40,716 bases of DNA from Bifidobacteriaceae bacterium (GCA_031255835.1 JAIRRT010000192.1:1-40716); one strand, 5' to 3'. Numbered from the stretch's first letter, positions 4,902 to 40,716 are shown. Numbers and translations: made by a program. Notes: generated by a model from the sequence alone, not told the origin.

Positions 4902-6377
4902 CTAGATTAGGAGGAGTTCGTATAGGGGGGTTTGGTAGTAGCGATTTATTACGTAGACCAGGGAGATTACTAGCCATGCGACTGGCATGATTCGGACCAG
5001 GCGCATGTACCAGCGGCGGGTCATTTTGGCCAGGGCAGGCATGACGGGGAGTAGAAGCGGGAGGACTGGCAGGAAGTATCTGCCCTGCAGACCCCAGATG
5101 GTTGGCGCGCCGGGCTCGGAGCCGACAATGTACATACCCAGCGCGGTCACCCAAACGAATCCGACCGCCACCACCAGCAGGAACACTCGGGTGCGGCGGG
5201 GCAATACTGACAGCCGGCCGTGGTAGCACAGCAGGTAGGCGGCGGCGCAGATCAGGATCGGCACGGCCACACCCAGCGGCAAGGGAGTGTCCATGGCACC
5301 GAAGTTTCCGGCAAAGGAGATTATGTTGTCGTTGCCGCGCAGAGAGATGAATTCCCTGGTCATCAGCAAGAACGCCATCGCCGGGTGGTGAAGCAGGTAG
5401 GAGAACTGGAAGCTCGAATCGCGGCTGACGCCATCGTCGTAGCCGGCGGACAGGCCCTGGCTCGCCACATACAGCCAGCCCAAAGCACACATTCCGGCGA
5501 ACAGAATGATGCCGGCCTTGGCCGCCCAGCCGAAGCGCCTCAGCAGCCGGCCTGCCGGAACCACCAGCAGCGCACCCACGCACACAACCACGCCCGGTTT
5601 GGTCAGCGCCACCGCCCCGGCCAGGCCAGCCAGCCCGGCCACCTTGAGCCAACCGATTGGGCCACGCTCGGCGGTGCGGCGCAGATACAAGGCGAGGCTG
5701 ATGAACAGGGCGGACAGCCCAATCGACATGGCGTCCCCGCCCAGTACCGCTGATTGGGCCACCGCCATCGGCAACAACAGCAGCGCCGCCAGCCCCCACT
5801 GCTTGTCTCGCCACAGCCAAACCGCCAACACGCCCAGTGCCGTGCGGACTAGCAGGGTCAGCAGGCGGGCCAGCATGAAGATCCCACCTGGGCTCATATT
5901 GACGGTTTCCCCGACGATGACGGCCACCGCCTGGGGCAGGTGCGCTATCGGGGAATAACTCGAGGTGAGCGCCGTATTCACGACTTCCGTATCGTGCTTG
6001 TTCAGGGGGGTGTTGAACACCAAGTCTGCCGTTTGGGACAAGGAGGTCCTGACCGTCGGGTCCCAGTGGATCACCTTCCCCTCGGCATTCTTCTCACCCG
6101 TTTCCACCAGGCTCTTTGGGATCTCCACGACTGCTTGGCCATCGACCTTTTGAGAGATGAAGTGCCCATGGGCAACCTCGTAGGCGCGGTACATGTGGAC
6201 CGGCTCGTCCGGGGCGGCATTGATGGGCACGCAGACCGCGAACACCGTGCCGAACAGCAACGACACCGCGGCGTAGAACCAACACGGCCGGTTCCAGATC
6301 CGCCAGAACAGCCGTGTGGGCCGGGATGCGTGAGCTGGGGGCGCGGGGGGGTTGGTTGAGGCGGTTGGGGCGGTCAT
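4902..6377 (-). CDS. DUF2142-like polytopic membrane protein (predicted GT-C-like glycosyltransferase or polymer-modifying enzyme)
   Basis: The track ORF is 4902..6461 (GTG start). I prefer the internal ATG at 6377 (MTAPTASTNPP...), which is preceded by GGAGG. The sequence contains many hydrophobic helices. After the first TM helix the motif APDEPVHMYRAYEVAHGHF resembles the PDExxHxxRAY signature I associate with DUF2142. It is the last gene of the minus-strand sugar operon. Confidence 0.6.
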   Translation of the reverse strand: MTAPTASTNPPAPPAHASRPTRLFWRIWNRPCWFYAAVSLLFGTVFAVCVPINAAPDEPVHMYRAYEVAHGHFISQKVDGQAVVEIPKSLVETGEKNAEGKVIHWDPTVRTSLSQTADLVFNTPLNKHDTEVVNTALTSSYSPIAHLPQAVAVIVGETVNMSPGGIFMLARLLTLLVRTALGVLAVWLWRDKQWGLAALLLLPMAVAQSAVLGGDAMSIGLSALFISLALYLRRTAERGPIGWLKVAGLAGLAGAVALTKPGVVVCVGALLVVPAGRLLRRFGWAAKAGIILFAGMCALGWLYVASQGLSAGYDDGVSRDSSFQFSYLLHHPAMAFLLMTREFISLRGNDNIISFAGNFGAMDTPLPLGVAVPILICAAAYLLCYHGRLSVLPRRTRVFLLVVAVGFVWVTALGMYIVGSEPGAPTIWGLQGRYFLPVLPLLLPVMPALAKMTRRWYMRLVRIMPVAWLVISLVYVINRYYQTPLYELLLI

Positions 6378-6482
6378 GGCACAGCGGTCCTCCACATCGA
6401 GAAAGATACGCCCCAAAGCCACCTGAACGGCCCAGTGCTCAAGGCGACCGAACGCTAGCACACCCGCCCCCCACCAGGCAGG

Positions 6483-7202
6483 CTAGTTGCGGCGGGCTTG
6501 TTGCCACCATTCGGCTTGAGGTGCCAGGGCTGCTGGCATCGGCTCGGGTGGTTCGCACAGCGGCGCCCCGTCACCGCTCGGCGCGGGGGCGGCGGCGTAG
6601 CAGGATTCGAGGGTCTGGATCGCTTGGGGTGGGATGCCTTGGCGGGTCATGCCCACCTGGTTGGCGCCGTGGAGACGGGCGGGGTTGCCGTGGACCTTGG
6701 CGAATGGGGGGACATCGCGCGTGACCACTGAGCCTTGACCCACCATCGCGCCGGGGCCTATCACCCGGAACTGGTGCACCACTGCCGCCGCACCTACGTT
6801 CCCGGCCTGCCCAAGGCGCACGTGACCAGCCAAAATGGCCCCGAGAGCGCAAGTTACGCCATCGGACAGCTCGACATCGTGGGCAAGTTGGACGCGGGTC
6901 ATCAGGAAGCAGGAGCCGCCCACGCGAGTCTGGCGCCGCGACCCGCGCGAGATGGTCACCTGCTCGCGGATCACGTTGCCGTCGCCAATCACCACCCCGA
7001 ACTCCCCCGCCTGCTCAATCCAGTCCGCCGGGTGCGGGTAGCCGCGAATCTCCGGCAGCCCGCCGATGACGCACCCCGCCCCAATCCAGTTGTCTGACCC
7101 CAGCCGCGTGCCCGCCGCGATCACCGCCCACGGTCCAATGACATTGCCGTCACCCATCTGCACGCCATCGCCCACGATGGCGGTCGGGTGGACCGTGTTC
7201 AC
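6483..7202 (-). CDS. LpxA-family acyl-[ACP]--UDP-N-acetylglucosamine acyltransferase homologue (left-handed beta-helix plus LpxA-type C-terminal helical domain)
   Basis: The 239-aa ORF has a GTG start at 7202 that overlaps the stop of the upstream oxidoreductase (GTGA). Several motifs are co-linear with E. coli LpxA as I recall it. These are VHPTAIV at the N-terminus, IGDGNVIREQVTISRGS (LpxA: IGDRNRIRESVTIHRG), QLAHDVELSDG (LpxA catalytic-His context AHIAHDCTVG) and AILAGHVRLG...VHQFRVIGPGAMVGQGSVVTRDVPPF. The post-helix segment HGNPARLHGANQVGMTRQGIPPQAIQTLESCY matches LpxA G.N..GL.RRGFS.E.I..I..AY. Confidence 0.8.
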   Translation of the reverse strand: MNTVHPTAIVGDGVQMGDGNVIGPWAVIAAGTRLGSDNWIGAGCVIGGLPEIRGYPHPADWIEQAGEFGVVIGDGNVIREQVTISRGSRRQTRVGGSCFLMTRVQLAHDVELSDGVTCALGAILAGHVRLGQAGNVGAAAVVHQFRVIGPGAMVGQGSVVTRDVPPFAKVHGNPARLHGANQVGMTRQGIPPQAIQTLESCYAAAPAPSGDGAPLCEPPEPMPAALAPQAEWWQQARRN

Positions 7203-8176
7203 CGCTCGCCTTGGGTGGCCGCGGACAGGAGTTTGCCCACCACTTCATGGGGTGGGGCTATGGAGGCTCGCTCGGCCGCGGCATCGCCCTGGCCGGACAG
7301 GAGTTCCAAGAAGCGGTCCAGTTGGGCCGCGAGGGGCTCGCGGCTGGTGACCAGCTCGGGGATCTCGATTACGGCCTGCTGGCGGTAGCCCCGGCCGTCT
7401 GGCCCAATCGCCTCGCCGGCAACGTGCTGGTAGATGATGACATCGCGCAGCAGCAGGTCAATCTCGATGGACCGCTCGAGTTCATAGACCACCAGTTGGC
7501 GGACCTTGCGCTGAGCCAACCGGCTGGCCGAGACACTGGCAATGGCACCGGTGTCGAACTGGATGGTTGCCTCGACCACGTCCTCTGCGCCGACCGCTGA
7601 ATGGGGCGAGAACGCGCCCACCACGCCGCTGGCATCCACGGCCCGCCCGCCGGCAAACCGCAGCGCCAGATCGACATCGTGGATGGCCAAATCCCAGCCA
7701 ACCCCGGTGACTATCCGAGGCGCGTAGGGGGAATGCCGCACTGACCGCAGCGCAATGGGCGCCTTGACCAGCGGCAACGCCGTCACAACGGCCGGATTGA
7801 AACGCTCCAGCAGCCCGCACATCAACGGGATGTCACGCTGCCGCGACACCTCCAGCAGTTGGCGTGTCTGGTCAATCGACGCAGTCAGCGGCTTCTCAAC
7901 CAGCAGCGGCAGGCCGGCATCCAGGACGTGGCGAGCTACGGCATCGTGCGCGGGGGTGGGGGCGGCGATCACCACGCCATCCACGCCTGCCAGCGATCCG
8001 ACATCGCCGCGCCATGTCGTGTTCCACCGAGCGGCCAGCGCTTGGCCCACCGCCTGGTCCGGATCAACCACGCCAACCAGCCGCGCGTCGGGGTGCGTCG
8101 AGATCACGCGCGCATGCAGCGACCCCATCTGACCGGCCCCCACCAGGAGCAACGCGGCCGGCGCCCGCCCGGTCAT
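7199..8176 (-). CDS. Gfo/Idh/MocA-family NAD-dependent sugar-nucleotide dehydrogenase (GnnA/WbpB/WlbA-like)
   Basis: The track ORF is 7199..8449. I chose ATG 8176 (MTGRAPAALLLVGAGQMGSLHARV...) because it overlaps the stop of the upstream aminotransferase by 4 bp (ATGA), and because the upstream extension is Arg/Pro-rich junk. The sequence has a Rossmann motif VGAGQMG and the family-typical EKP motif in PLLVEKPLT. Confidence 0.8.
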   Translation of the reverse strand: MTGRAPAALLLVGAGQMGSLHARVISTHPDARLVGVVDPDQAVGQALAARWNTTWRGDVGSLAGVDGVVIAAPTPAHDAVARHVLDAGLPLLVEKPLTASIDQTRQLLEVSRQRDIPLMCGLLERFNPAVVTALPLVKAPIALRSVRHSPYAPRIVTGVGWDLAIHDVDLALRFAGGRAVDASGVVGAFSPHSAVGAEDVVEATIQFDTGAIASVSASRLAQRKVRQLVVYELERSIEIDLLLRDVIIYQHVAGEAIGPDGRGYRQQAVIEIPELVTSREPLAAQLDRFLELLSGQGDAAAERASIAPPHEVVGKLLSAATQGER

Positions 8177-9270
8177 GCCAGCAGCCTTCGCACAGCGGCG
8201 ATGATCTGGGCGACATCGCCGGAACTCAAGGCTGGATGGACAGGGAGCGAGACGACTTGCGAGGCGAGGCGGCGCGCCACCGGGACATCGCACACTTGTA
8301 CACGCGGGTGGTTCAGATACACCGGATAGTCGAACACAACTTTCGGATAGTAGACCCCGCAGCCGATGCCGGCCTCCGCCAGTCCCTCCACGAACTGTTC
8401 GCGCGTGAGGCGGGCCTCGGGCGTCAGGCGCACGGTGTATTGGTGCCACACGTGCCCGCGGCCGGGCAGCGCCTGCGGGACAACCAGCCCTTCGATGCCT
8501 TTCAGACCCTGGTTCAGCGCGGCCGCATTGGCCTGCCGCGCCGAGACGTTGGCGGCGTAGCGGTCGAGTTGCGGCAACACCAAAGCCGCCTGGAGATCGG
8601 TCAGCCGATAGTTGTGACCAGCCATAACGTATTCGTAGCGCTGCCGCATGCCCTGGTTGCGCAGCACCTGTAGCCGCTCGGCAAGGTCAGCATCATTGGT
8701 GGTCACCATGCCGCCCTCGCCGGTGGTCAGATTCTTGGTCCCATAAAACGAGAAGCCGCCGATGCCGTAGCTCCCCACTGCTTTCCCGTTCAGCGTGGCG
8801 CCGTGGGACTGGGCTGCATCCTCCACAACGGCCAGGCGGTGTTTCTGGGCAATCGGCATGAGCTGGTCCATCGGCGCGGCTTGGCCATACAGATGTACCG
8901 GCATTAGCACGCGTGTTCGAGGCCCCAAGGCGGCCCCTACGGAAGCTGGATCAATGGCGAAATCCGCCTCTGCGACATCGGCGAACACCGCTGTGGCGCC
9001 AGCCTCCAGGATGGCGTTGAGGGTGGCAACAAACGTCAGCGGACTGGTGATGACTTCATCGCCCGGCTGGAGTTGCAGCGCTTCGAGGGACGCCACCAAG
9101 GCTGTGGTGCCGCTCGAGACCGCCACGGCGTGGGCGCAACCGGTCATCTCGGCGAAGCGCCGCTCGAACTCGGCCACCACTGCGCCCTGGGCCAACCGGC
9201 CGGAGCGGAGCACTTCAACGGCCATGGCGATGGAATCTTCGCCCAGGTCAACACGGGAAATGGGTATCAA
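8173..9270 (-). CDS. DegT/DnrJ/EryC1/StrS-family PLP-dependent sugar aminotransferase (GnnB/WbpE-like)
   Basis: The ORF is 365 aa with a TTG start at 9270, preceded by GGGAG 5 nt upstream. Family motifs are present: RFAEMTGCAHAVAVSSGTTAL, the VEDAAQSHGA Asp/Gln region, and the PLP-lysine context FSFYGTKNLTTGEGGMV. Confidence 0.9.
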   Translation of the reverse strand: MIPISRVDLGEDSIAMAVEVLRSGRLAQGAVVAEFERRFAEMTGCAHAVAVSSGTTALVASLEALQLQPGDEVITSPLTFVATLNAILEAGATAVFADVAEADFAIDPASVGAALGPRTRVLMPVHLYGQAAPMDQLMPIAQKHRLAVVEDAAQSHGATLNGKAVGSYGIGGFSFYGTKNLTTGEGGMVTTNDADLAERLQVLRNQGMRQRYEYVMAGHNYRLTDLQAALVLPQLDRYAANVSARQANAAALNQGLKGIEGLVVPQALPGRGHVWHQYTVRLTPEARLTREQFVEGLAEAGIGCGVYYPKVVFDYPVYLNHPRVQVCDVPVARRLASQVVSLPVHPALSSGDVAQIIAAVRRLLA

Positions 9271-9334
9271 GGCGGCTCCCGCAGGGCGGTCGGGTCAGTG
9301 CGTCGCAGACCCTAGCACATGGCATCATTGCCCG

Positions 9335-10312
9335 GTGATCAGCAGCCAGACGGACCGCCCCCGGCGCAGCGCGCTGCTCGGGGCGGACCGGCGGGCCGGC
9401 ATCGCCGCTGTGTTGCGGTGGGTCGCCATCGTGGTGGTGGTTGGCGCGGCGGTTTGGGTGCTGGCATCCAACTGGGACGAGGCGCTGGCAACCGCCCGCG
9501 CGGTCCATCCACTGTCGCTTGGACTGTCGCTTTTGGTGCTGATGGCTGGATCTGCGGCGGCAACCATGAGTTGGCAGGTGCTGCTGGACGGGTTGGGCCC
9601 ACCGGTCGGCATACCTCGCGGATTCCAGATTTATCTTGTGGGGTTGCTGGGCAAATACGTACCGGGCTCTGTGTGGGCATACCTGCTCCAAATGGAGCTG
9701 GGAAAGCGCCATGGCGTGTCGCGCCCAAGGGTGCTGGCGGCGTCGCTGTTCGCTGCCGGTATCGGTGTGGTTGGCTCGCTGGTGCTTGGGCTGGCGGCGC
9801 TGCCGGCCATAAGCGGGGTTGACAGGCGGCTTTACTGGCTCTACGCCATCATCCCGCTCGGTCTGGCCGTGCTCAATCCGCGGGTGATGACGTGGATGGC
9901 CCGCCTGGTGTTCCGCCTGATGCGCCGCCCCGCGCCCGATGTCGCACTGCGCGGCCGGACGGTGGCGGCCGCCTTCGGATGTGTGCTGGTTGCATACGTG
10001 ATGTTTGGCCTGCACCTTTGGCTGCTGGCCAACTCCCTGGCCCAACCGACCATCTCCACTTTGGCGCTGTGCATCGGCGCATCAGGGTTGGGCATGACTG
10101 CCGGGCTATTCGCCTTCTTCATGCCATCCGGGCTGGGCGCGCGCGAGGCCGTGCTGGGCGCTGCCCTGGCCACCGTGCTATCCGTGGGCCAAGCCAGCGC
10201 GTTGGCGGTCGGTTCACGCATCATGTTCACCGTTTCCGATCTGGCGTTGGCGGGCATGGCCGCCGGCCTGGCCGTGCTGGCCGCCAGACGCACGCGGTCC
10301 CGGACCGTCTAG
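9335..10312 (+). CDS. UPF0104 / lysylphosphatidylglycerol-synthase-TM-type flippase-like membrane protein
   Basis: This is the C-terminal two-thirds of track ORF 8795..10312. The 5' part of that ORF is antisense to the DegT gene, so it cannot be real. The first plausible in-frame start after 9270 is GTG 9335 (MISSQTDRPRRSALL...). The protein has about 8 hydrophobic helices. The motifs LLGKYVPGSVW and MPSGLGAREAVLG match the P.G.G..E pattern of this family. The start coordinate is uncertain. Confidence 0.6.
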   Translation: MISSQTDRPRRSALLGADRRAGIAAVLRWVAIVVVVGAAVWVLASNWDEALATARAVHPLSLGLSLLVLMAGSAAATMSWQVLLDGLGPPVGIPRGFQIYLVGLLGKYVPGSVWAYLLQMELGKRHGVSRPRVLAASLFAAGIGVVGSLVLGLAALPAISGVDRRLYWLYAIIPLGLAVLNPRVMTWMARLVFRLMRRPAPDVALRGRTVAAAFGCVLVAYVMFGLHLWLLANSLAQPTISTLALCIGASGLGMTAGLFAFFMPSGLGAREAVLGAALATVLSVGQASALAVGSRIMFTVSDLALAGMAAGLAVLAARRTRSRTV

Positions 10313-10379
10313 ACTTGGGCGGCGTCCGCCCCGGCCAGCCCTGGCCAGCCATTGGGCGGGCGGCGCACCCGCTAGTGGA

Positions 10380-11537
10380 ATGGACCAGATGACGCACCAG
10401 GACCGTGTTGTTCCGCTCGGCCAACCCACCGTCGGTCAGGCCGAACTCGACGCCATCCGGGACGTCTTCGACTCCGGCTGGCTGGCCGGCGCCGGCCCAA
10501 CCTGCCGGCAGTTCGAGACCGAGTTGGCCGCAGCATGCGGCACAGCCCACGCGCTAGCCACCGCCAATTGCGGATCGGCACTCCATTTGGCTTTGCAGGT
10601 GCTCGATGCCGGCCCTGGCCAAGAGGTGATTGTTGCCGATTACACCTTCCCCGCCACCGGCCACGCCGTCGCCTGGACAGGCGCAACGCCCGTCTTCGCG
10701 GACATCCTGCCCGGCAGTTGGTGCGTGGATCCCGCCGCGGTGACCGCCGCCATCACCCCCCGGACCGCCGGGATCATCGCCGTTGACGCATTTGGCCAGC
10801 CGGCCGGCTACGCCGAGTTGGCGGACATCGCCGCAGCTCACGGCCTGTGGCTCATAGAAGACGCCGCCTGCTCAGTAGGCGCTACCTATCAGGGCCGGCC
10901 AGCCGGATCCTTTGGAGACATCGCCGCCGTTTCATTCCACGGCCGCAAGGGCATCACCGCCGGCGAGGGCGGCGCGCTTTTGACCGATAACCCCGAATGG
11001 GCCGCCCGCGCCCGGCGCCTCCACACCTACGGCACAGAACCGGCCATCAGCCGCGAAGGCGCCACCGGGCTTCCAATACCGCACTTTGCCGAGATTGGCC
11101 GCAACTACCGCATGTCAGATGTCGCCGCAGCCATAATGCGCGTGCAACTGACCAGATTGCCTGACCTATTGGCGGCCCGCAACCAAACCGCTGCCCACTA
11201 TCGCGAATTGCTGGGCGACGTTCCGGAAATTGACTTGCCGAACGTCATCGGCGGGCGGACTCATTCCTGGCAATCATACGTGCCGACGATGGCGCCGCAT
11301 ATTGACCGCGATGCCGTCGCCGCACAATTGCGGGCCGAGGGCGTCCAATGCAATTTCGGAACGTATGCCTCTCACCTCTTGCCGGTGTATGAGTCTGCAA
11401 GCCGCTGCCCCGTCTCGGCCGATGTGTTTGCCCGGCATTTGGCCATTCCGATGCACGCCAATTTGACCGCCAGCCAAGTCGAGCGGGTCGCAGCCACCCT
11501 GCGGGCCGCCGTCACCAACCCAGCCAACCGGCGGTAA
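10380..11537 (+). CDS. DegT/DnrJ/EryC1/StrS-family PLP-dependent sugar aminotransferase (second copy)
   Basis: The ORF is 385 aa. Family motifs are present: GQAELDAIRDVFDSGWL, IEDAACSVGA, and the PLP-lysine context VSFHGRKGITAGEGGAL. An alternative ATG lies at 10389. Confidence 0.9.
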   Translation: MDQMTHQDRVVPLGQPTVGQAELDAIRDVFDSGWLAGAGPTCRQFETELAAACGTAHALATANCGSALHLALQVLDAGPGQEVIVADYTFPATGHAVAWTGATPVFADILPGSWCVDPAAVTAAITPRTAGIIAVDAFGQPAGYAELADIAAAHGLWLIEDAACSVGATYQGRPAGSFGDIAAVSFHGRKGITAGEGGALLTDNPEWAARARRLHTYGTEPAISREGATGLPIPHFAEIGRNYRMSDVAAAIMRVQLTRLPDLLAARNQTAAHYRELLGDVPEIDLPNVIGGRTHSWQSYVPTMAPHIDRDAVAAQLRAEGVQCNFGTYASHLLPVYESASRCPVSADVFARHLAIPMHANLTASQVERVAATLRAAVTNPANRR

Positions 11538-11562
11538 CCTGCCGCCCCCACCGAGGAGTCCC

Positions 11563-12501
11563 ATGTCCGCAAACCCCAGCAAGACGGTGTTCTTTACCGG
11601 CGGAGCCGGCTTCATCGGGCTGCATGTGCTGCCCATGCTGTTGGCCGAGGGCTACCACGTCCGGGTGTTTGACAACATGTTCCGAGGTGACAGGGCCGCC
11701 ATCGCCCGGCTGGAAGGGACCGGCCAGGTTGAGTTGATTGACCAGGACGTACGCTACGGCGGGGCTGTGCATGCGGCCATGAAGGGTTGCAGCAAGGTCA
11801 TCCACGCGGCCGCTGTTTCGATCAACAAGAGCCAGGCTGACCCATACGAATCGCTTGACATCAACCTGATTGGCGAGCACAACGTCTTCGCCGCGGCTGT
11901 TGATCATGGCGTGGACCGGCTGGTGTTCTGCTCCAGCGCGTCAGTTTATGGCGATCCAACCCACCTGCCCATGCATGAGGACGATGTCCTCGATCCGCTC
12001 ACTCCGTACTGCATTTCCAAGCGTGCCGGCGAGGATCTGTTGCGGTATTACGAGCGCCGCGCCGGGTTGAACTGGATTGCGTTGCGGTTCTTCAACGTTT
12101 ACGGCCCGGGGCAAAAGACAACCGCCTATTACACGTCAGTCATCAACCATTTTGTGAACAGGTTGCGGTCTGGCGAACCGCCCGTCATTGACGGCAAAGG
12201 CGAACAGTCGATGGATTTCATTCATGTCCACGATATCGCCCGGGCCGTTGTGCTCGCTTTGACGGCTGAGCAGGGCAATATGGCGATCAATATCGGCACA
12301 GGGATAGACACTTCGATTGCTGAGCTTGCCCGAATCCTGATCGAGGCTGCCGGGGCGGACGTGGAGCCGATTTTCAACCCGCGTGACGTCCTGGTCTCCC
12401 GCCGGGCTGCCGATATCACCAGGGCCAAAGACGTGCTCGGATTCGCCCCATCGATTGCCGTGCGCGACGGCATGACAGACCTGATCCGGAGCGGCGGATG
12501 A
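11563..12501 (+). CDS. Extended-SDR NAD-dependent sugar-nucleotide epimerase/dehydratase
   Basis: The ORF is 312 aa, with GAGGAG 5 nt upstream of the ATG. It has the motif TGGAGFIG (GxxGxxG) and the catalytic YxxxK as YCISK preceded by CSSASVYG. Confidence 0.85.
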   Translation: MSANPSKTVFFTGGAGFIGLHVLPMLLAEGYHVRVFDNMFRGDRAAIARLEGTGQVELIDQDVRYGGAVHAAMKGCSKVIHAAAVSINKSQADPYESLDINLIGEHNVFAAAVDHGVDRLVFCSSASVYGDPTHLPMHEDDVLDPLTPYCISKRAGEDLLRYYERRAGLNWIALRFFNVYGPGQKTTAYYTSVINHFVNRLRSGEPPVIDGKGEQSMDFIHVHDIARAVVLALTAEQGNMAINIGTGIDTSIAELARILIEAAGADVEPIFNPRDVLVSRRAADITRAKDVLGFAPSIAVRDGMTDLIRSGG

Positions 12502-13034
12502 GCCCCGCAACGCCCCCATCCACTGGCGCGCCAACCGGCGGGCCCACCGCCGGGCCCACGCCCACCTCTGACCCCCCACCCACCCGGCCGGGTCTGCCGC
12601 CCAACCCTTACAACCCGCTGGCCTGGATCATTGGCGAGCCCTCCATAGGTGAGGGCACCTGGATTGGCGCGTTCACCGTCATCGACGGCTCCGGAGGACT
12701 GCAGATTGGCTCGGGGTGCGACATCGGCGCTGGCTGCCAGATCTACACCCACTCCTCCGCACGGCGCTGCGTGTCCGGCCGGCGCTACGGCGAAGTTGAC
12801 CGCAAGCCGGTGACCATGGGCGACAGGGTCTTCATGGGCCCCGGCGCCATGGTGTTCATGGGTGTCGAGGTGGGCGATGAAGCCGTCATCTGCGCAGGTG
12901 CCATGGTCACCCGCTCGGTTCCCCCACGCACAATCGTGGCGGGCGTGCCAGCCCGGCCAATCGGCATCGTCCAATTCGATGACCCGGCCAGCCCGCGATT
13001 TGTCCTCACCGACCCACCAACTGGGCAGATCTGA
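12498..13034 (+). CDS. Hexapeptide-repeat (LbH) acyl/acetyltransferase with a Pro-rich N-terminal extension
   Basis: The ORF is 178 aa. Its ATG overlaps the stop of the epimerase gene (ATGA). Hexapeptide repeats are visible: IGEGTWIGAFTVIDGSGGLQIGSGCDIGAGCQI and VFMGPGAMVFMGVEVGDEAVICAGAMV, followed by VAGVPARPIG. The first 40 aa or so are low-complexity Pro/Thr/Gly. Confidence 0.8.
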   Translation: MSPATPPSTGAPTGGPTAGPTPTSDPPPTRPGLPPNPYNPLAWIIGEPSIGEGTWIGAFTVIDGSGGLQIGSGCDIGAGCQIYTHSSARRCVSGRRYGEVDRKPVTMGDRVFMGPGAMVFMGVEVGDEAVICAGAMVTRSVPPRTIVAGVPARPIGIVQFDDPASPRFVLTDPPTGQI

Positions 13035-14227
13035 TGCGCATCGCCGTTGTCAACAACTTCTTCCCGCCGCGGGTGGGTGGCTCGTCCCACCTGTCCCACA
13101 CCCTGGCCACGCGCTACGCCCAGGCCGGCCACAAAGTCCTGGCCGTCACCGCCGCCTACCGCGATGCCCCCACATTCGAGGCGTTCGATGGCGGTCACAT
13201 AGTCCGCCTCCCGGCTTTCCAGATCCCCGAGACCCCTCTGGCCTTGAACTTCGACATCAGCTTTGCCACCAGGCCGTCGCTGCCGCGCCGGTTGGCTCGG
13301 ATCCTCGACGCGTTCAAGCCCGACGTCATCCACCAACACGGCCAGTTTTTCGACCTGACCTGGGCAAGCGGACTGTATGCGCGGCGGCGCGGCATCCCGA
13401 CGCTGCTCTCGGTGCACACTCGGCTGGAGAACCCGACGGCGCTGTATCGCGGCGCACTGCGGTACATCGACGCCTGCTTGGTGCGCCCGGCTCTGCTGGC
13501 GTACCGGCCAAACATGGTGGTCATGGACCGGCTGATGCGCAGCTACATCACCGAGCGCTACCCCGGCGCCTACCGCGAACTGTTCGATATCCCCGTCGGG
13601 ATTGACCCGGTGGCGGCGGCAGGTGGGGACGGCGGCGTTGGGCGGGCCAAGCTCGGGCTTGAGCCGGATGTGCCGCTGATTGTCTCGGTGGGCCACGTCA
13701 TCCCGCTGCGGGATCGGGTTGCCCTTGTCGAGGCCCTGCCGCATGTGCGCCGCCACATCCCGCAGGTCAAGCTGGCCGTCATCGGCGAGGTGTATTACGA
13801 CGTGTTCTCCCGGCGCGCGGCCGAGCTTGGTGTGTCCGATTCCGTCATCCAAGTTGGCCCGGTTCCCAAGGCTGACGTGCCGCATTACCTGGCCGCCGCC
13901 TGGGTGGAGAGCCACGAGCAGGGCTACGGCCTGGGCACCGCGACGCTGGAGGCGATGGCCGCCGGGGTGCCGGTGGTGGCCGCCGCCCGGCCCGACAACT
14001 TTGCGCCACTGGCGTTGACTGACCGCCGCGAACTGTTCCTCGCCCCGCCTGGCGATACCCCCGCCCTCGCCGCCGCGCTGACCGAGGCGCTGTCCAACCG
14101 GGCTCTGGCCGGGCAGGTTGGGCTTGCCGGCCAGGAGTTCGCCTTGGCCCACTTCACACTCGATGCCGTCACAAACCAGCACCTCGACGTGCTTGGCGAG
14201 TTGGCCAAGGAGGCGAGCACAGCGTGA
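13034..14227 (+). CDS. GT4-family (GT-B fold) glycosyltransferase
   Basis: The ORF is 397 aa. Its ATG overlaps the upstream stop (TGATG). The N-terminus MRIAVVNNFFPPRVGGSSH and the C-terminal motif ESHEQGYGLGTATLEAMAAGVPVVAA are typical of Glycos_transf_1/GT4 enzymes. Confidence 0.85.
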   Translation: MRIAVVNNFFPPRVGGSSHLSHTLATRYAQAGHKVLAVTAAYRDAPTFEAFDGGHIVRLPAFQIPETPLALNFDISFATRPSLPRRLARILDAFKPDVIHQHGQFFDLTWASGLYARRRGIPTLLSVHTRLENPTALYRGALRYIDACLVRPALLAYRPNMVVMDRLMRSYITERYPGAYRELFDIPVGIDPVAAAGGDGGVGRAKLGLEPDVPLIVSVGHVIPLRDRVALVEALPHVRRHIPQVKLAVIGEVYYDVFSRRAAELGVSDSVIQVGPVPKADVPHYLAAAWVESHEQGYGLGTATLEAMAAGVPVVAAARPDNFAPLALTDRRELFLAPPGDTPALAAALTEALSNRALAGQVGLAGQEFALAHFTLDAVTNQHLDVLGELAKEASTA

Positions 14228-15411
14228 ACCGCACCGATATTGCTGTGGTGGGGGCCGGCATCGTCGGCTTGGCAGTGGCGGAGGCTTTGTCCCGTCAAGG
14301 TCGCCATGTGACAGTACTGGAGAAGGAACCGACGATGGCGGCCCACCAGACTGGCCGCAATTCTGGGGTTATCCATTCGGGCATCTATTACGCCCCGGGC
14401 AGCTTGAAGGCGCGGTTGTGCCGGGCGGGGGCGGCGTCGATGGCGCGGTTCGCTGAGGAGCACGGTGTTGCTCGCGGACCGAGCGGCAAGGTGATTGTGG
14501 CGACGCGGCCGAGCGAACTGCCTGCTCTGAGGGCGCTGGCGGCCCGGGCCGGGGCCAACGGGATCGAGGCGCATCAGGTGACGCGCGCACAGGTGGCCGA
14601 ACTTGAGCCGCATGTTGGCGCCATCGCCGGCCTGCATTTGCCCGGCACGGGGACCATCGATTACTCCCAGGTTTGCCAGGCGTTGGGCGCGCTGGTGGTC
14701 AGCCAGGGCGGCGAGGTGCTGCTGGGGCAGCGGCTGGTGGCGGCGCGGACGGTGGGCGAGACGGTCGAGATCAGCCTGGCGGACGGCTCGCGGCTCGCGG
14801 CGAATGGCCTGATCAACTGCGGTGGGCTGCATTCGGATGAGATCTGCTCGGCCTGCGGCGTGGACCCAGGCGTCCGGATTGTGCCGTTCCGGGGCGAGTA
14901 CTACGAGCTGGCGCCTGACAGGCGGGACCTGGTGCGCAGCCTGGTCTATCCGGTGCCTGACCCGCGGTTCCCCTTCCTCGGGGTGCATCTGACGCGCATG
15001 GTTGACGGGTCGGTTCACGCCGGGCCGAATGCTGTGCTGGCGCTGGCGCGGGAGGGGTACACCTGGCGCGATATCCAGCTGGACGATCTAGCCGGCACGC
15101 TGACATGGCCCGGATTCTGGCGCCTGGCCGCGCGCTATGCACCCGCCGGCGCCAAGGAGATGGCCCGCTCCGCATCGATGCGCCTGTTCGCCGCGTCCCT
15201 GGTCCGCTTGGTGCCGGAGATCGAGCCCAGCGACCTCCGCCCAGCCCCCGCCGGAATCCGCGCCCAAGCCCTAACCGCCACCGGCGCCCTAGTAGACGAC
15301 TTCCTAATCCGCCGAGCCCCCCGCCAAATCCACGTCCTAAACGCCCCCTCCCCAGCAGCCACAGCCGCCCTAGAAATAGCCCACCACCTATCAACCCAAT
15401 CCCCCACCTAA
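14224..15411 (+). CDS. lhgO: FAD-dependent L-2-hydroxyglutarate oxidase/dehydrogenase (LhgO/YgaF family)
   Basis: The ORF is 395 aa. Its GTG start overlaps the GT4 stop (GTGA). It carries the FAD motif DIAVVGAGIVGLAVAEAL, then HQTGRNSGVIHSGIYYAPGSLKA, FRGEYYEL and FLGVHLTRMVDGSVHAGPNAV, which match the LhgO family as I recall it. The gene symbol is given at family level only. Confidence 0.75.
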   Translation: MNRTDIAVVGAGIVGLAVAEALSRQGRHVTVLEKEPTMAAHQTGRNSGVIHSGIYYAPGSLKARLCRAGAASMARFAEEHGVARGPSGKVIVATRPSELPALRALAARAGANGIEAHQVTRAQVAELEPHVGAIAGLHLPGTGTIDYSQVCQALGALVVSQGGEVLLGQRLVAARTVGETVEISLADGSRLAANGLINCGGLHSDEICSACGVDPGVRIVPFRGEYYELAPDRRDLVRSLVYPVPDPRFPFLGVHLTRMVDGSVHAGPNAVLALAREGYTWRDIQLDDLAGTLTWPGFWRLAARYAPAGAKEMARSASMRLFAASLVRLVPEIEPSDLRPAPAGIRAQALTATGALVDDFLIRRAPRQIHVLNAPSPAATAALEIAHHLSTQSPT

Positions 15412-15547
15412 CCCCACCACCCGCGCCGCTCGCGCCGGCAGCGCCGGCACCCGCCCCCAACGGGCCACCGCCGCAACTGCTCAAAACACCACCTCACCTC
15501 CGGTTTCCCGTCCCGTTGTGAGCACTTTCGGTTGTCGCTGTCACCCG

Positions 15548-15823
15548 TCCGCCGATGGCGTTCAGACGTTGGGGGTGTTCGCCCTGTAGCGCGTGCGTTG
15601 GGTAGGGGTTCGATGCCGCTGGCGGCATGCCTTTTGGAGCCGGTCACCGAATTCTTCTGGGGATGATGCGTGTGGTCCAGGGTTTCGTGATGTCGGTGGG
15701 TTTGGTGGTGGTCCGGTTCCCAGACGTCGCGTGGTTCGGATCCCGGACCTGGGTGCGGACAAGGAGGTGTGCGGGCGTGCCTCCTCCAACCTCACCATCC
15801 AGTGTGTGGACGGCCTGATCGGA
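15548..15823. repeat. Head module of a modular intergenic repeat element (left copy), homologous to 39766-40211
   Basis: Blocks of nucleotide identity are shared with the right-hand copy. The shared blocks are gccgatg.cg.tca.acgttggg, gtaggggttcgatgccgctggcggcatgcctttt, ggtcaccg, tctggggatgatgcgtgtggtc...ttcgtgatgtcggtgggtttggtggtggtccggttcccagacgtcg.gtggttcggatcc, and acctcacc immediately before the tandem array. Confidence 0.8.
15613..15635 (+). terminator. Possible intrinsic-terminator-like hairpin inside the head module
   Basis: The inverted repeat is ATGCCGC-tg-GCGGCAT (15613-15628), followed by gcc and TTTT (15632-15635). The sequence is identical in the right-hand copy (39828-39850). 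The stem is short and the U-tract is only 4 nt long, so this call is weak. Confidence 0.3.
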
Positions 15824-16130
15824 GGTGCTTAACTGACCAATTGAGCCGCCTGGCTCGCCAATTGGTCACTTAAGCACATCCACCTCGACGGGCCTGAGCA
15901 CAAGCGGGCAGGTGAACGGCCTGGTCGGAGGTGCTTAACTGACCAATTGAGCCGCCTGGCTCGCCAATTGGTCACTTAAGCACATCCACCCCGACGGGGC
16001 TGAGCACAAGCGGGCAGGCGAACGGCCCGGTGGGGAGTGCTTAACTGACCAATTGAGCCGCCTCCCACGCCAATTGGTCACTTAAGCACATCCACCTCGA
16101 TGGGGCTGAGCACGGCAGGGCACGCAGGAA
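15824..16130. repeat. Tandem array of 3 units of 106 bp, each containing an imperfect palindrome of about 53 nt (left locus)
   Basis: The landmark gcttaa recurs at 15827, 15933 and 16039, giving a period of exactly 106 bp. In unit 1 the left arm GTGCTTAACTGACCAATTG is at 15825-15843, the loop agccgcctggctcgc is at 15844-15858, and the right arm CAATTGGTCACTTAAGCAC is at 15859-15877. The third unit degenerates after about 16115. Confidence 0.9.
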
Positions 16131-16428
16131 GACTGAGCGAACTTGGGAACTGCTGGACCAGAGGCAGCATCCCCAGACAATCCAAGGTGACCATCTCTGT
16201 CGGTCTTGCCGCCAGGAGCACTGACCCACTACGCACCGACGGCGTTACCCAACGGAGCACCCAGGTTTGGACGGCATCGGCGACCGGAAGTGCTCAGCCC
16301 TGGGCTCGGGGTGGGGGGTTCTACTTGGGGGCGGGCGTGAGGTGGGGGGTTGTGGGGGGGAAGGGGGATAGGGTGGCTTGCGGGGCGGCTTTGGGTGCCG
16401 CTAGGGGACTAGGACAGGAGCACTCCAC

Positions 16429-17277
16429 ATGTCTATTGGGTTCATTGGCGCGGGCAACATGGCTGGCGCGATCATCCGCGGGATTGTCGGATCGGGGTAT
16501 GCGCCGGCTGCGCGGATATTGGCTTACGACCCTCATGCGCCGACTCTGGACGCGCTTGTTGAGCAGACCGGGATTGTGCCGGTGGCCGGGAATCCTGAGG
16601 TGATTGCGGCCGATACAACCGTTGTGCTGGCGGTAAAACCGCAGGTCATCCCGCGGGTCATGGAGGAGGTGGCTGCACAGATTGTTGCTGCCAGGCCCCT
16701 GGTCATCTCGATTGCCGCGGGCACGCCAATCCAGTCTCTGGAACGCTGGCTGGGCCCTGAGCAGCCAATTGTCCGCGCCATGCCGAACGTCAACGCCCAG
16801 GTGCGCCAAGCCGTCACAGCAGTGGCCGGAAACGGCGCCACCACGCCGGAGCAACTCGCCACGGCCAAGGCGATCTTCACCTCGGTTGGCGAGGTGGTCG
16901 AGTTGGATGAGTCGCTGTTCCGGGCGTTCGCGGCGTTGGCCGGCTCCTCCCCAGCCTGGACGTTCCTGTACATCGACGCACTCGCCCGCGGTGGCGTGGC
17001 AGCCGGGATGCCCAAAGCCCTGGCGCTGCAAATCGCCGCGAAAGCGGTTGCCGGCTCTGCTGCCCTCCTGGCCGATGGCGGCGCTCACCCTTGGGAGTTG
17101 ATCGACCAAGTGTCCTCCCCGGCGGGCACAACAATCGCTGGGTTGACCGTCCTGGAGGAGAAGGGCCTGTCAAGCGCTGTGCTTGGCGCCGTCGCCGCGA
17201 CCATGCGGCGTGAAGAGATGATCGCCCGGAAGAACCGCCCGCCCCGCCGCCCACGAAACCGCCCCGAGATCCCGTGA
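16429..17277 (+). CDS. proC: Pyrroline-5-carboxylate reductase
   Basis: The ORF is 282 aa, with AGGAG 9 nt upstream of the ATG. It has the NADP motif IGFIGAGNMAGAII, then VLAVKPQ, RAMPN and the C-terminal motif VSSPAGTTIAGL. A basic Pro/Arg tail is present. Confidence 0.9.
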   Translation: MSIGFIGAGNMAGAIIRGIVGSGYAPAARILAYDPHAPTLDALVEQTGIVPVAGNPEVIAADTTVVLAVKPQVIPRVMEEVAAQIVAARPLVISIAAGTPIQSLERWLGPEQPIVRAMPNVNAQVRQAVTAVAGNGATTPEQLATAKAIFTSVGEVVELDESLFRAFAALAGSSPAWTFLYIDALARGGVAAGMPKALALQIAAKAVAGSAALLADGGAHPWELIDQVSSPAGTTIAGLTVLEEKGLSSAVLGAVAATMRREEMIARKNRPPRRPRNRPEIP

Positions 17278-39765: not shown

Positions 39766-40211
39766 CACGCCGATGACGCTCAACGTTGGGTGCTCGGGTT
39801 GTGGTGCGGAGGTTGCGTAGGGGTTCGATGCCGCTGGCGGCATGCCTTTTGAAGGCGGTCACCGGAGTATCTGGGGATGATGGGTGTGGTCAGGGGTTTC
39901 GTGGTGTCGGTGGGTTTGGTGGTGGCCGGGCTATGCGACGTTCTTGCGCACCTGCCGCCTAGGGTCACCGGTTGCCGCCATCGTCGCGGTGGTTGGTTCA
40001 GTGGTGTTGGCGGCAAGACTGATCGAGGTGGTCACCGATGTCTTCTGGGGATGATGCGTGTGGTCAGGGGGTTCGTGATGTCGGTGGGTTTGGTGGTGGT
40101 CCGGTTCCCAGACGTCGAGTGGTTCGGATCCGATACGTGGCCGCGGACAGGCAGGTGTGTCGAGTGTGTCTCCCCCCACCTCACCCCTCAGCCGTGGTTG
40201 GCCTGGTGAGG
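39766..40211. repeat. Head module of the modular intergenic repeat element (right copy), with an internal duplication of about 173 bp
   Basis: It shares the same conserved blocks as 15548-15823. The block ggtcaccg...tctggggatgatg.gtgtggtc...tcggtgggtttggtggtgg occurs twice, with GGTCACC at 39857 and 40030 (spacing 173 bp). An extra GGTCACC lies at 39963. The hairpin plus TTTT at 39828-39850 is identical to 15613-15635. Confidence 0.8.
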
Positions 40212-40716
40212 GGTGCTTAACTGACCAATTGAGCCGCCTTGGTCGCCAATTGGTCACTTAAGCACATCCACCTCGACCGGCCTGAGCACAAAAGGGTGTG
40301 TGGACGGCCCGGTCAGAGGTGCTTAACTGACCAATTGAGCCGCCTGGCTCGTCAATTGGTCACTTAAGCACATCCACCTCGACGGGCCTGAGCACGACAG
40401 GGTGTGTGGGTGGCCTGGTCAGGGGTGCTTAACTGACCAGTTGAGCCGCCTTGGTCGCCAATTGGTCACTTAAGCACATCCACCCCGACCGGCCTGAGCA
40501 CGACAGGGTGTGCGGATGGCCCGGTCAGAGGTGCTTAACTGACCAATTGAGCCGCCTGGCTCGCCAATTGGTCACTTAAGCACATCCACCCCGACGGGCC
40601 TGAGCACGACAGGGGGTGTGGACGGCCTGGTCGGAGGTGCTTAACTGACCAATTGAGCCGTCTGGCTCGCCAATTGGTCACTTAAGCACATCCACCCCGA
40701 CGGGGTTGAGCACGAC
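40212..40716. repeat. Tandem array of at least 4.8 units of 106 bp, each with the imperfect palindrome of about 53 nt (right locus). The array is truncated by the window end.
   Basis: The landmark gcttaa recurs at 40215, 40321, 40427, 40533 and 40639, giving a period of exactly 106 bp. The units are about 85-95 percent identical to each other and to the left-locus units by eye. The window ends inside unit 5. Confidence 0.9.

Follow-up and report, generated by a model that had tools for sequence, protein, structure and literature searches.

The stretch of DNA analysed here, a contig of 40,716 nucleotides from a Bifidobacteriaceae bacterium (GCA_031255835.1 JAIRRT010000192.1:1-40716; hereafter the window), carries a cluster of amino-sugar and glycan biosynthesis genes. 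Its plus-strand operon ends with lhgO (14224-15411), encoding a flavin adenine dinucleotide (FAD)-dependent L-2-hydroxyglutarate dehydrogenase/oxidase. The genes of this operon are tightly packed in the order membrane protein, DegT-family aminotransferase, short-chain dehydrogenase/reductase (SDR), beta-helix acetyltransferase, GT4 glycosyltransferase and lhgO. The lhgO open reading frame (ORF) comprises 395 aa and begins with a GTG at 14224, which forms a 4-nt overlap, GTGA (14224-14227), with the TGA stop codon (14225-14227) of the GT4 gene (13034-14227, plus strand; Pfam Glycos_transf_1 and Glyco_transf_4). A perfect Shine-Dalgarno sequence, AAGGAGG, can be read directly within the 3' end of the GT4 gene (14207-14213, plus strand), with a spacing of 10 nt to the GTG. 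The start of lhgO is essentially fixed, since this GTG is the earliest start codon past the upstream in-frame stop, lies four codons ahead of the Rossmann beta1-GxGxxG element and is followed by a family model alignment that runs from residue 5. Further upstream, the SDR and acetyltransferase genes overlap at 12498-12501, the acetyltransferase and GT4 genes have nucleotide 13034 in common, and the remaining intergenic gaps, back to the membrane-protein gene, amount to 25 and 67 nt. Identical gene order and an identical 4-nt GT4/lhgO overlap were observed in the closest relative found (locus L161), whose LhgO is 72% identical, and an independent Logan contig assembled from the source run, a termite gut metagenome, reproduced the segment 13900-15447. 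Hence, lhgO is translationally coupled to the end of the amino-sugar operon. A preliminary description of the window had already placed lhgO in one operon with the sugar genes from the GTGA overlap with the GT4 stop; the coordinates of that overlap were confirmed, and the Shine-Dalgarno sequence, the other overlapping junctions and the arrangement repeated in L161 add to it.

The protein encoded by this ORF can be firmly regarded as a genuine LhgO/L2HGDH. It matched the NCBIfam equivalog NF008726 with 514.9 bits against a cutoff of 299, the next family reaching 113 bits, and its residues 5-389 aligned to positions 2-387 of the 389 in the model, that is, over its full length. It also matched Pfam DAO (181 bits), with the N-terminal GxGxxG present as VVGAGIVG at residues 8-15, and aligned end to end with the Drosophila L2HGDH 8w75 (305 bits). 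In the Drosophila enzyme, 2-oxoglutarate and L-2-hydroxyglutarate (L-2-HG) are contacted by Ser88, His92, Tyr289, Leu299, His302 and Arg393, mutation of which kills or impairs activity (PMC10726252). Their counterparts in the window LhgO are S47, H51, Y242, L252, H255 and R346, and none of the six varied among the 150 sequences aligned (the window LhgO plus 149 homologues from the fetched loci). The LhgO of Pseudomonas putida is inactive on D-2-hydroxyglutarate (D-2-HG) and thus L-specific (PMC5974017), as are the Escherichia coli and Drosophila enzymes (PMC5974017, PMC10726252), and the window enzyme is likewise predicted to be L-specific and to convert L-2-HG into 2-oxoglutarate. The LhgO assignment proposed in the preliminary description therefore holds by profile hidden Markov model score and by conservation of all six substrate residues, and the other substrate classes that it had considered for the flavoenzyme, glycerol-3-phosphate and sarcosine, appear very unlikely in view of the conserved 2-oxoglutarate contacts and the equivalog score. 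In addition, the cluster LhgO seems to be a normal orthologue recurrently kept beside the cluster, and not a neofunctionalised or diverged paralogue, since a neighbour-joining tree of 153 LhgO sequences resembled taxonomy and interleaved the copies from inside the cluster with those from outside it. A specialised LhgO paralogue confined to the cluster was considered as a candidate and rejected on account of the interleaved tree and the invariant active site.

The linkage of lhgO to this cluster extends far beyond the window. Using the SDR as query and one genome per species, we obtained 80 actinobacterial loci (74-88% identity), which together with L161 make a set of 81. A LhgO homologue was found within 10 kb of the orthologous DegT-SDR-acetyltransferase module in 71 of the 81, in genera including Cellulomonas, Micromonospora, Nocardioides, Leifsonia, Lentzea, Jatrophihabitans and Phosphoribacter, a metagenome-assembled genome (MAG) of Solirubrobacterales and others; of the ten loci with no lhgO nearby, six are on truncated contigs and four are full-length, genuine absences. 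The gene order is far from constant, with at least five architectures. In the commonest, present in 50 of 73 loci and spanning Micromonospora to Leifsonia, Lentzea, Jatrophihabitans and the Solirubrobacterales MAG, lhgO is divergent from the aminotransferase-SDR-acetyltransferase genes across a median gap of 194 bp, and lhgO lies at most 1.5 kb from the aminotransferase gene in 46 of 72 loci. In other architectures lhgO stands downstream of the membrane-protein gene, downstream of the GT4 gene as in the window, directly upstream of a Gfo/Idh/MocA dehydrogenase gene on the same strand with a gap of 70-137 bp (Nocardioides type) or within the operon, flanked by cluster genes on both sides (L115 and L120). 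Translational coupling of lhgO to three different neighbours is seen across the loci. Likewise, a Microbacterium genome sampled through its LhgO contained the full cluster. The co-occurrence across genomes that the preliminary description had proposed as a check was thus strongly borne out, and the Gfo/Idh/MocA-DegT pair that it had named is present in 65 of 73 lhgO-containing loci.

Regarding the enzyme with which LhgO may cooperate, the preliminary description had tied lhgO to this latter pair, encoded on the minus strand by a Gfo/Idh/MocA sugar-nucleotide 3-dehydrogenase gene (Gfo; 7199-8176; Pfam GFO_IDH_MocA, PF01408 and PF22725) and the gene of a first DegT-family aminotransferase (DegT1; 8173-9270; Pfam DegT, 393 bits). 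The pair and the second aminotransferase gene (DegT2; 10380-11537, plus strand; Pfam DegT, 346 bits) are present as it had claimed; the tie to the pair was not supported, as lhgO tracks the DegT2-SDR module more tightly. Median distances to lhgO were 228 bp for DegT2 (72 loci), 1407 bp for the SDR, 5490 bp for Gfo and 5407 bp for DegT1, in a comparison biased by the SDR-centred choice of the 81 loci, many of them from related species (about 30 Micromonospora). The dehydrogenase gene nearer to lhgO was that of the SDR in 54 loci and that of Gfo in 19, and in two loci (L092 and L070) lhgO and the SDR module are present, Gfo being out of reach.

The SDR itself (11563-12501, plus strand; Pfam Epimerase, 182 bits) is an epimerase-type extended SDR and a putative C4 dehydrogenase. 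Its SSASVYG and YCISK motifs provide the catalytic Ser/Thr and YxxxK, and its best match in the PDB was the 6wjb/6wj9 family (159 bits), its closest structures being listed as UDP-sugar 4-epimerases and epimerase/dehydratase-family proteins. No other protein of the cluster is as conserved: its identity is 74-88%, with a median of 79% over the 81 loci, the other cluster proteins having medians of 44-68%. The best PDB matches of DegT2 were perosamine synthase and ArnB, which are C4 aminotransferases, and family scans of the cluster revealed no 4,6-dehydratase, the dehydratase TDE motif being also absent from the SDR. A non-dehydrating C4 oxidase would therefore be needed, because a C4-type aminotransferase is present and a 4,6-dehydratase is not. 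The module is completed by a left-handed beta-helix sugar N-acetyltransferase of NeuD/PglB/VioB-like type (12498-13034, plus strand; Pfam Hexapep), whose best match, TIGR03570, scored 62.9 bits against a cutoff of 160.8. A C4 dehydrogenase with the appropriate stereochemistry is known in Campylobacter jejuni. Cj1427 (MlghA), a GDP-manno-heptose C4-dehydrogenase of the SDR type, holds an NADH that is not displaced by NAD+ and is re-oxidised by alpha-ketoglutarate in a ping-pong manner, yielding L-2-HG (PMC10680097, PMC7949155). In the literature searched, Cj1427 was the only sugar-nucleotide dehydrogenase reported to make the L enantiomer.

Independent linkages between lhgO and an SDR gene were detected in other phyla. 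Among 46 cyanobacterial LhgO loci, 32 have rfbF, encoding a glucose-1-phosphate cytidylyltransferase, just upstream of lhgO and an epimerase-type SDR gene just downstream of it. With the cyanobacterial SDR as query, lhgO was found at a distance of no more than 6 kb in 79 of 79 loci, being directly upstream on the same strand in 65. The best solved relative of this SDR is 6vo6 (92.7 bits), which has the AT.FG.SPRMR.D motif in common with it. The 6vo6 chain, which we take to be Cj1427, is 96% identical to a cluster of C. jejuni SDRs of 313 aa, which fits that identification. In several Verrucomicrobia, an Acidimicrobiales MAG and Legionellales (83-84% identity), too, lhgO has an orthologue of the cyanobacterial SDR gene nearby, and the similarity of the Legionellales trio suggests acquisition by horizontal transfer. 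A Chloroflexales locus contains a UXS/ArnA-like SDR gene followed by lhgO, with a divergent DegT gene, and in a Bacillota MAG a homologue 67% identical to the 6vo6 chain is encoded two genes downstream of LhgO (332 bits), with a heptose-kinase-like gene between. As an observation apart, the rfbF-lhgO-SDR trio is nearly invariant in Nostocales-type cyanobacteria (L036:9113-12300 and about 79 further loci, L167-L245), where it may form part of the heterocyst envelope polysaccharide island.

Taken together, these data lead us to propose, with moderate confidence, that LhgO recycles L-2-HG made by the cluster. LhgO would close a hydride shuttle, made up of 2-oxoglutarate and L-2-HG, that serves one dehydrogenase of the cluster, most likely the SDR. 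According to this proposal, one sugar-nucleotide dehydrogenase of the cluster would hold NAD(H) tightly and work in a ping-pong mode, oxidising a nucleotide sugar to the keto-sugar and then using the bound NADH to reduce 2-oxoglutarate to L-2-HG. The partner DegT enzyme would aminate the keto-sugar with L-glutamate, thereby supplying 2-oxoglutarate, and LhgO would regenerate 2-oxoglutarate from L-2-HG and pass the electrons to quinone or O2, in this way removing an inhibitory dead-end metabolite and pulling an unfavourable oxidation forward. In the window, the SDR encoded at 11563-12501 would feed the C4-type aminotransferase encoded at 10380-11537. We infer that an enzyme of the window cluster reduces 2-oxoglutarate, and which enzyme does so; for the SDR, this activity is predicted from the linkage to lhgO and from pathway logic. 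The SDR is the most likely source of L-2-HG because the precedent for the L enantiomer is an SDR, lhgO lies nearest to DegT2 and the SDR, an SDR is the common element across phyla and a C4 oxidase is needed; the GnnA-like Gfo enzyme (7199-8176) would be the second candidate.

Several observations, together with the sampling bias described above, weigh against this proposal. The window SDR has the general features of a Cj1427-type enzyme, namely the extended SDR fold, the catalytic Ser/Thr with YxxxK and the lack of a dehydratase acid/base pair, but it is 23% identical to the Cj1427 fragment (46.6 bits) and displays RFFNVYGPG in place of the AT.FG.SPRMR.D motif, so that it falls outside the Cj1427 subfamily; with UDP-sugar 4-epimerases among its closest structures, it might be no more than a 4-epimerase. 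GnnA-type enzymes turn over free NAD+; hence, neither of the two dehydrogenases is proven to need 2-oxoglutarate. Among close homologues of the 6vo6 chain, lhgO was nearby in one of the five lineages sampled and was not seen in the four others, among them a Helicobacter locus, in a sample that did not extend to the C. jejuni locus itself; the linkage of lhgO to close Cj1427 homologues is thus lineage-specific rather than universal. Four full-length actinobacterial loci (L140, L146, L148 and L153) have the cluster and no lhgO within 10 kb; a D2HGDH of the FAD_binding_4 type was sought in them as a substitute and not found, their neighbouring genes encoding lectins, GT87, a geranylgeranyl-reductase-like protein, a protease and others. 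Moreover, lhgO lies beside mfd with no cluster genes nearby in Oerskovia and Sanguibacter, and orthologous cluster genes are absent within 10 kb of the LhgO of Phytohabitans and Kutzneria.

These cases could be accommodated if there were no metabolic coupling at all, LhgO being a housekeeping enzyme that repairs the L-2-HG formed as a by-product of malate and lactate dehydrogenases, encoded beside an ancient, vertically inherited envelope locus, and the GT4/lhgO overlap being a local accident of gene packing. The taxonomy-like tree with its single orthologue, the occurrence of LhgO away from the cluster in several Actinobacteria and many other bacteria, and the four loci that have the cluster and no lhgO all speak for it, and actinobacterial core synteny is generally conservative. 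We consider this explanation unlikely, because the linkage survives at least five rearrangements, including those that place lhgO inside the operon and those that couple it to three different neighbours, and because it arose independently with an SDR gene among other neighbours in cyanobacteria, with all 79 loci conforming, and in Verrucomicrobia, Legionellales, Chloroflexales and Bacillota, where the partner family is the one known to produce L-2-HG.

A second explanation, put forward in the preliminary description, retains the coupling and assigns it to a WbpB/WlbA-type Gfo enzyme, whose bound NADH would reduce the 2-oxoglutarate released by DegT1 (8173-9270), LhgO recycling the 2-HG so formed. 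The ATG start of Gfo at 8176 overlaps the DegT1 stop as ATGA, so the pair is translationally coupled, and besides its presence in most lhgO-containing loci, the Nocardioides-type loci, with lhgO directly upstream of Gfo, and the precedent of WbpB for 2-oxoglutarate-dependent re-oxidation within the Gfo/Idh/MocA fold lend it support. The window enzyme has this fold and an adjacent DegT gene, as WbpB/WlbA enzymes do, but lacks a specific sequence relationship to them. It scored 125 bits with the NCBIfam model of UDP-GlcNAc 3-dehydrogenase, below cutoff, and matched the WlbA structures 3q2k/3q2i with E~0.004 (about 20 bits) and in the Rossmann region only; 3oa2 and 3o9z, which we take to be the PDB codes of WbpB, were absent from its best 60 PDB matches. 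Its best PDB match was 7bvj (97 bits), described in a preprint as GnnA, a UDP-GlcNAc 3-dehydrogenase. By its sequence, then, the enzyme appears to be GnnA-like and not of the WbpB/WlbA type that had been claimed. Furthermore, the model enzyme WbpB makes D-2-HG (PMC8651671), which a strictly L-specific LhgO with an unchanged active site would not consume, an outcome that the preliminary description had itself named as refuting and that holds here for the model enzyme, lhgO and Gfo are usually about 5.5 kb apart and out of reach of one another in L092 and L070, and the cyanobacterial and Bacillota linkages have an SDR and no Gfo. A WbpB/WlbA-type Gfo as the partner of LhgO is therefore unlikely, and that part of the preliminary description is probably wrong.

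A different role in the cluster could also be imagined, given that DAO-family enzymes are versatile and that some glycans carry 2-hydroxyglutaryl amide substituents. A LhgO-like enzyme acting on another 2-hydroxy acid or on a sugar-linked substituent, or as a local quinone reductase, as a 2026 preprint proposes for eukaryotic L2HGDH within a coenzyme Q metabolon, is very improbable when the six L-2-HG/2-oxoglutarate contacts are invariant both in and out of the cluster, the alignment with the strictly L-2-HG-specific animal enzyme runs end to end and the in-cluster copies form no separate clade.

The remaining genes of the cluster deserve mention. The plus-strand operon begins with a membrane protein gene of the LPG_synthase_TM family (9320-10312; Pfam PF03706), whose start, an in-frame ATG at 9320, is uncertain. 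In L161, an AbiEii-family toxin gene and a small ORF (L161:751-1752) lie between this gene and DegT2, splitting the plus-strand module from upstream. On the minus strand, Gfo and DegT1 are accompanied by the genes of an LpxA-like beta-helix acyl/acetyltransferase (6483-7202; NCBIfam LpxA, 171 bits against a cutoff of 226; LpxA structures in the PDB, 84-109 bits) and a DUF2142 membrane protein (4902-6461; Pfam PF09913, 171 bits). The GnnA-like dehydrogenase, DegT and LpxA-like acyltransferase (6483-9270) resemble the UDP-GlcNAc3N route of lipid A-type pathways, and this trio shares its cluster with the LPG_synthase_TM and DUF2142 proteins in a Gram-positive actinobacterium. This likeness hints that its product may be a 3-amino sugar, N-acylated or N-acetylated, or a glycolipid.

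Other observations concern the surroundings of lhgO in related genomes. In Cellulomonas sp. McL0617, the LhgO match appears in two adjacent pieces (L086:14711-15118 and 15121-15450, within 14711-15450), pointing to a frameshifted gene, a pseudogene or an error in sequencing. Several genera have, downstream of lhgO and on its strand, genes for very large proteins (740-970 aa), of which some contain LGFP cell-wall-anchor repeats (L164:11185-17936, L135:5092-7458, L081:867-3788), and in Microbacterium the first of these large genes overlaps the lhgO stop by 4 nt. For Cellulomonas, mfd was considered as the spacer between lhgO and the cluster and rejected; the spacer genes encode an unknown protein and a DUF7657/DUF7654 protein.

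The 3' end of lhgO shows an unusual codon composition. From 15226 to 15420 (plus strand), a run of 65 codons, including the stop codon and two beyond, has neither G nor T in third position (A3 33%, C3 67%), the rest of the gene having a G3 of about 46-53%; it is the longest run of the window with no G3. The protein is conserved in this tail, the closest relatives use G-ending codons there and the Logan contig confirms the sequence, and no similar tail stood out in other high-GC actinobacterial lhgO genes among the 148 homologues scanned. No intrinsic terminator-like site was found on the plus strand within 9000-16600, and Rfam and terminator scans of the spacer between lhgO and proC gave nothing meaningful. 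Speculatively, this C-rich, G-poor tail may be a Rho-loading (rut-like) element at the end of the operon.

Downstream of the operon, a dispersed repeat occupies two sites of the window, 15573-16207 and 39788-40716, each made up of tandem 106-bp units behind a leader of about 230 bp, with 2.9 copies of the unit at the first site and at least five at the contig end. The unit folds into a strong hairpin formed by a palindrome with 19-bp arms, GTGCTTAACTGACCAATTG...CAATTGGTCACTTAAGCAC (-49 kcal/mol, z -4.5). Its depth in the source metagenome is about 11,800, compared with 8 for the flanking genes, and it had no match among the Rfam families, the other fetched loci or the JGI metagenome contigs. 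Since the second copy is cut off by the contig end, joins across the repeat may be unreliable; the join of lhgO to proC across it (about 15500-16300) may be assembly-fragile, the operon itself being unaffected. Finally, four 82-nt copies, 66-71% alike and spaced 267-276 bp, lie at 441-1332 across the ORFs 98-874 and 1274-1879; they probably stem from a protein domain of some 90 aa that is repeated, and neither ORF had a Pfam match.

Couplings of a comparable kind are known elsewhere. In Pseudomonas aeruginosa, the D-2-HG made by WbpB is recycled by D2HGDH, and less O-antigen is formed when D2HGDH is lost (PMC8651671, Xiao et al. 2021). As in our proposal, 2-oxoglutarate re-oxidises an NADH that the sugar-nucleotide dehydrogenase binds tightly, a DegT-type partner uses the keto-sugar and a FAD-dependent 2-HG dehydrogenase regenerates 2-oxoglutarate; unlike in our proposal, the enantiomer is D, the dehydrogenase is of the Gfo/Idh/MocA type and D2HGDH (PA0317) comes from a different FAD family. 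PA0317 is not known to be part of the P. aeruginosa glycan cluster, whereas the L-specific DAO-family enzyme of the window is encoded within the operon. Cj1427 provides the complementary likeness, being an extended SDR that has a nucleotide sugar as its substrate and yields the enantiomer that LhgO consumes, in spite of its distance in sequence from the window SDR; the fate of its L-2-HG goes unmentioned in PMC10680097. In the CsiD-LhgO system for glutarate and lysine catabolism of E. coli and P. putida, an L-specific LhgO yields 2-oxoglutarate with quinone, O2 or dyes as acceptors (PMC5974017). The enzyme family is the same as in the window, but that operon is catabolic and its L-2-HG is formed by CsiD, which hydroxylates glutarate, while the neighbours of the window gene belong to glycan biosynthesis, and no CsiD was detected among the window ORFs scanned. 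In L-serine synthesis, the unfavourable dehydrogenation by SerA is pulled by 2-oxoglutarate reduction and FAD-dependent re-oxidation of 2-HG, as cited within PMC5974017 and PMC8651671; this coupling differs from the window in its D enantiomer, its place in central metabolism and the lack of gene-cluster linkage to glycan synthesis. As to novelty, the preliminary description had regarded the linkage as undescribed. In the literature searched, coverage of which was incomplete, neither lhgO or L-2-hydroxyglutarate oxidase in combination with DegT or glycosyltransferases nor WlbA in combination with hydroxyglutarate led to a paper on lhgO in glycan clusters, so this part stands; for the D enantiomer, it has already been published that WbpB-dependent glycan synthesis is coupled to a 2-HG dehydrogenase.

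The cluster probably directs the synthesis of an unstudied and widespread cell-envelope amino-sugar glycan, because it is conserved across many actinobacterial genera, its SDR being 74-88% identical. In a broader and more tentative reading, which we put forward as plausible and somewhat doubtful, the 2-oxoglutarate/L-2-HG pair would act as a shuttle from locked-NAD sugar oxidation by SDRs to the quinone pool, forming a two-enzyme glycan module widespread in Actinobacteria and cyanobacteria. If this were true, the module would be a previously unrecognised part of glycan biosynthesis, with the DegT-SDR-left-handed beta-helix genes as its actinobacterial form and the rfbF-lhgO-SDR trio as its cyanobacterial one, and it would explain how the net oxidation of a nucleotide sugar at C4 (or C3) becomes catalytic and irreversible. 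A neighbouring lhgO would be a genomic marker of ping-pong sugar-nucleotide dehydrogenases, including SDRs that resemble plain 4-epimerases, and such SDRs would look inactive in vitro unless 2-oxoglutarate is added, as was the case with Cj1427. Overall, LhgO would gain a biosynthetic role beyond glutarate catabolism and metabolite repair, as a counterpart, encoded in an operon and acting on the L enantiomer, of the couplings WbpB-D2HGDH and SerA-D2HGDH.

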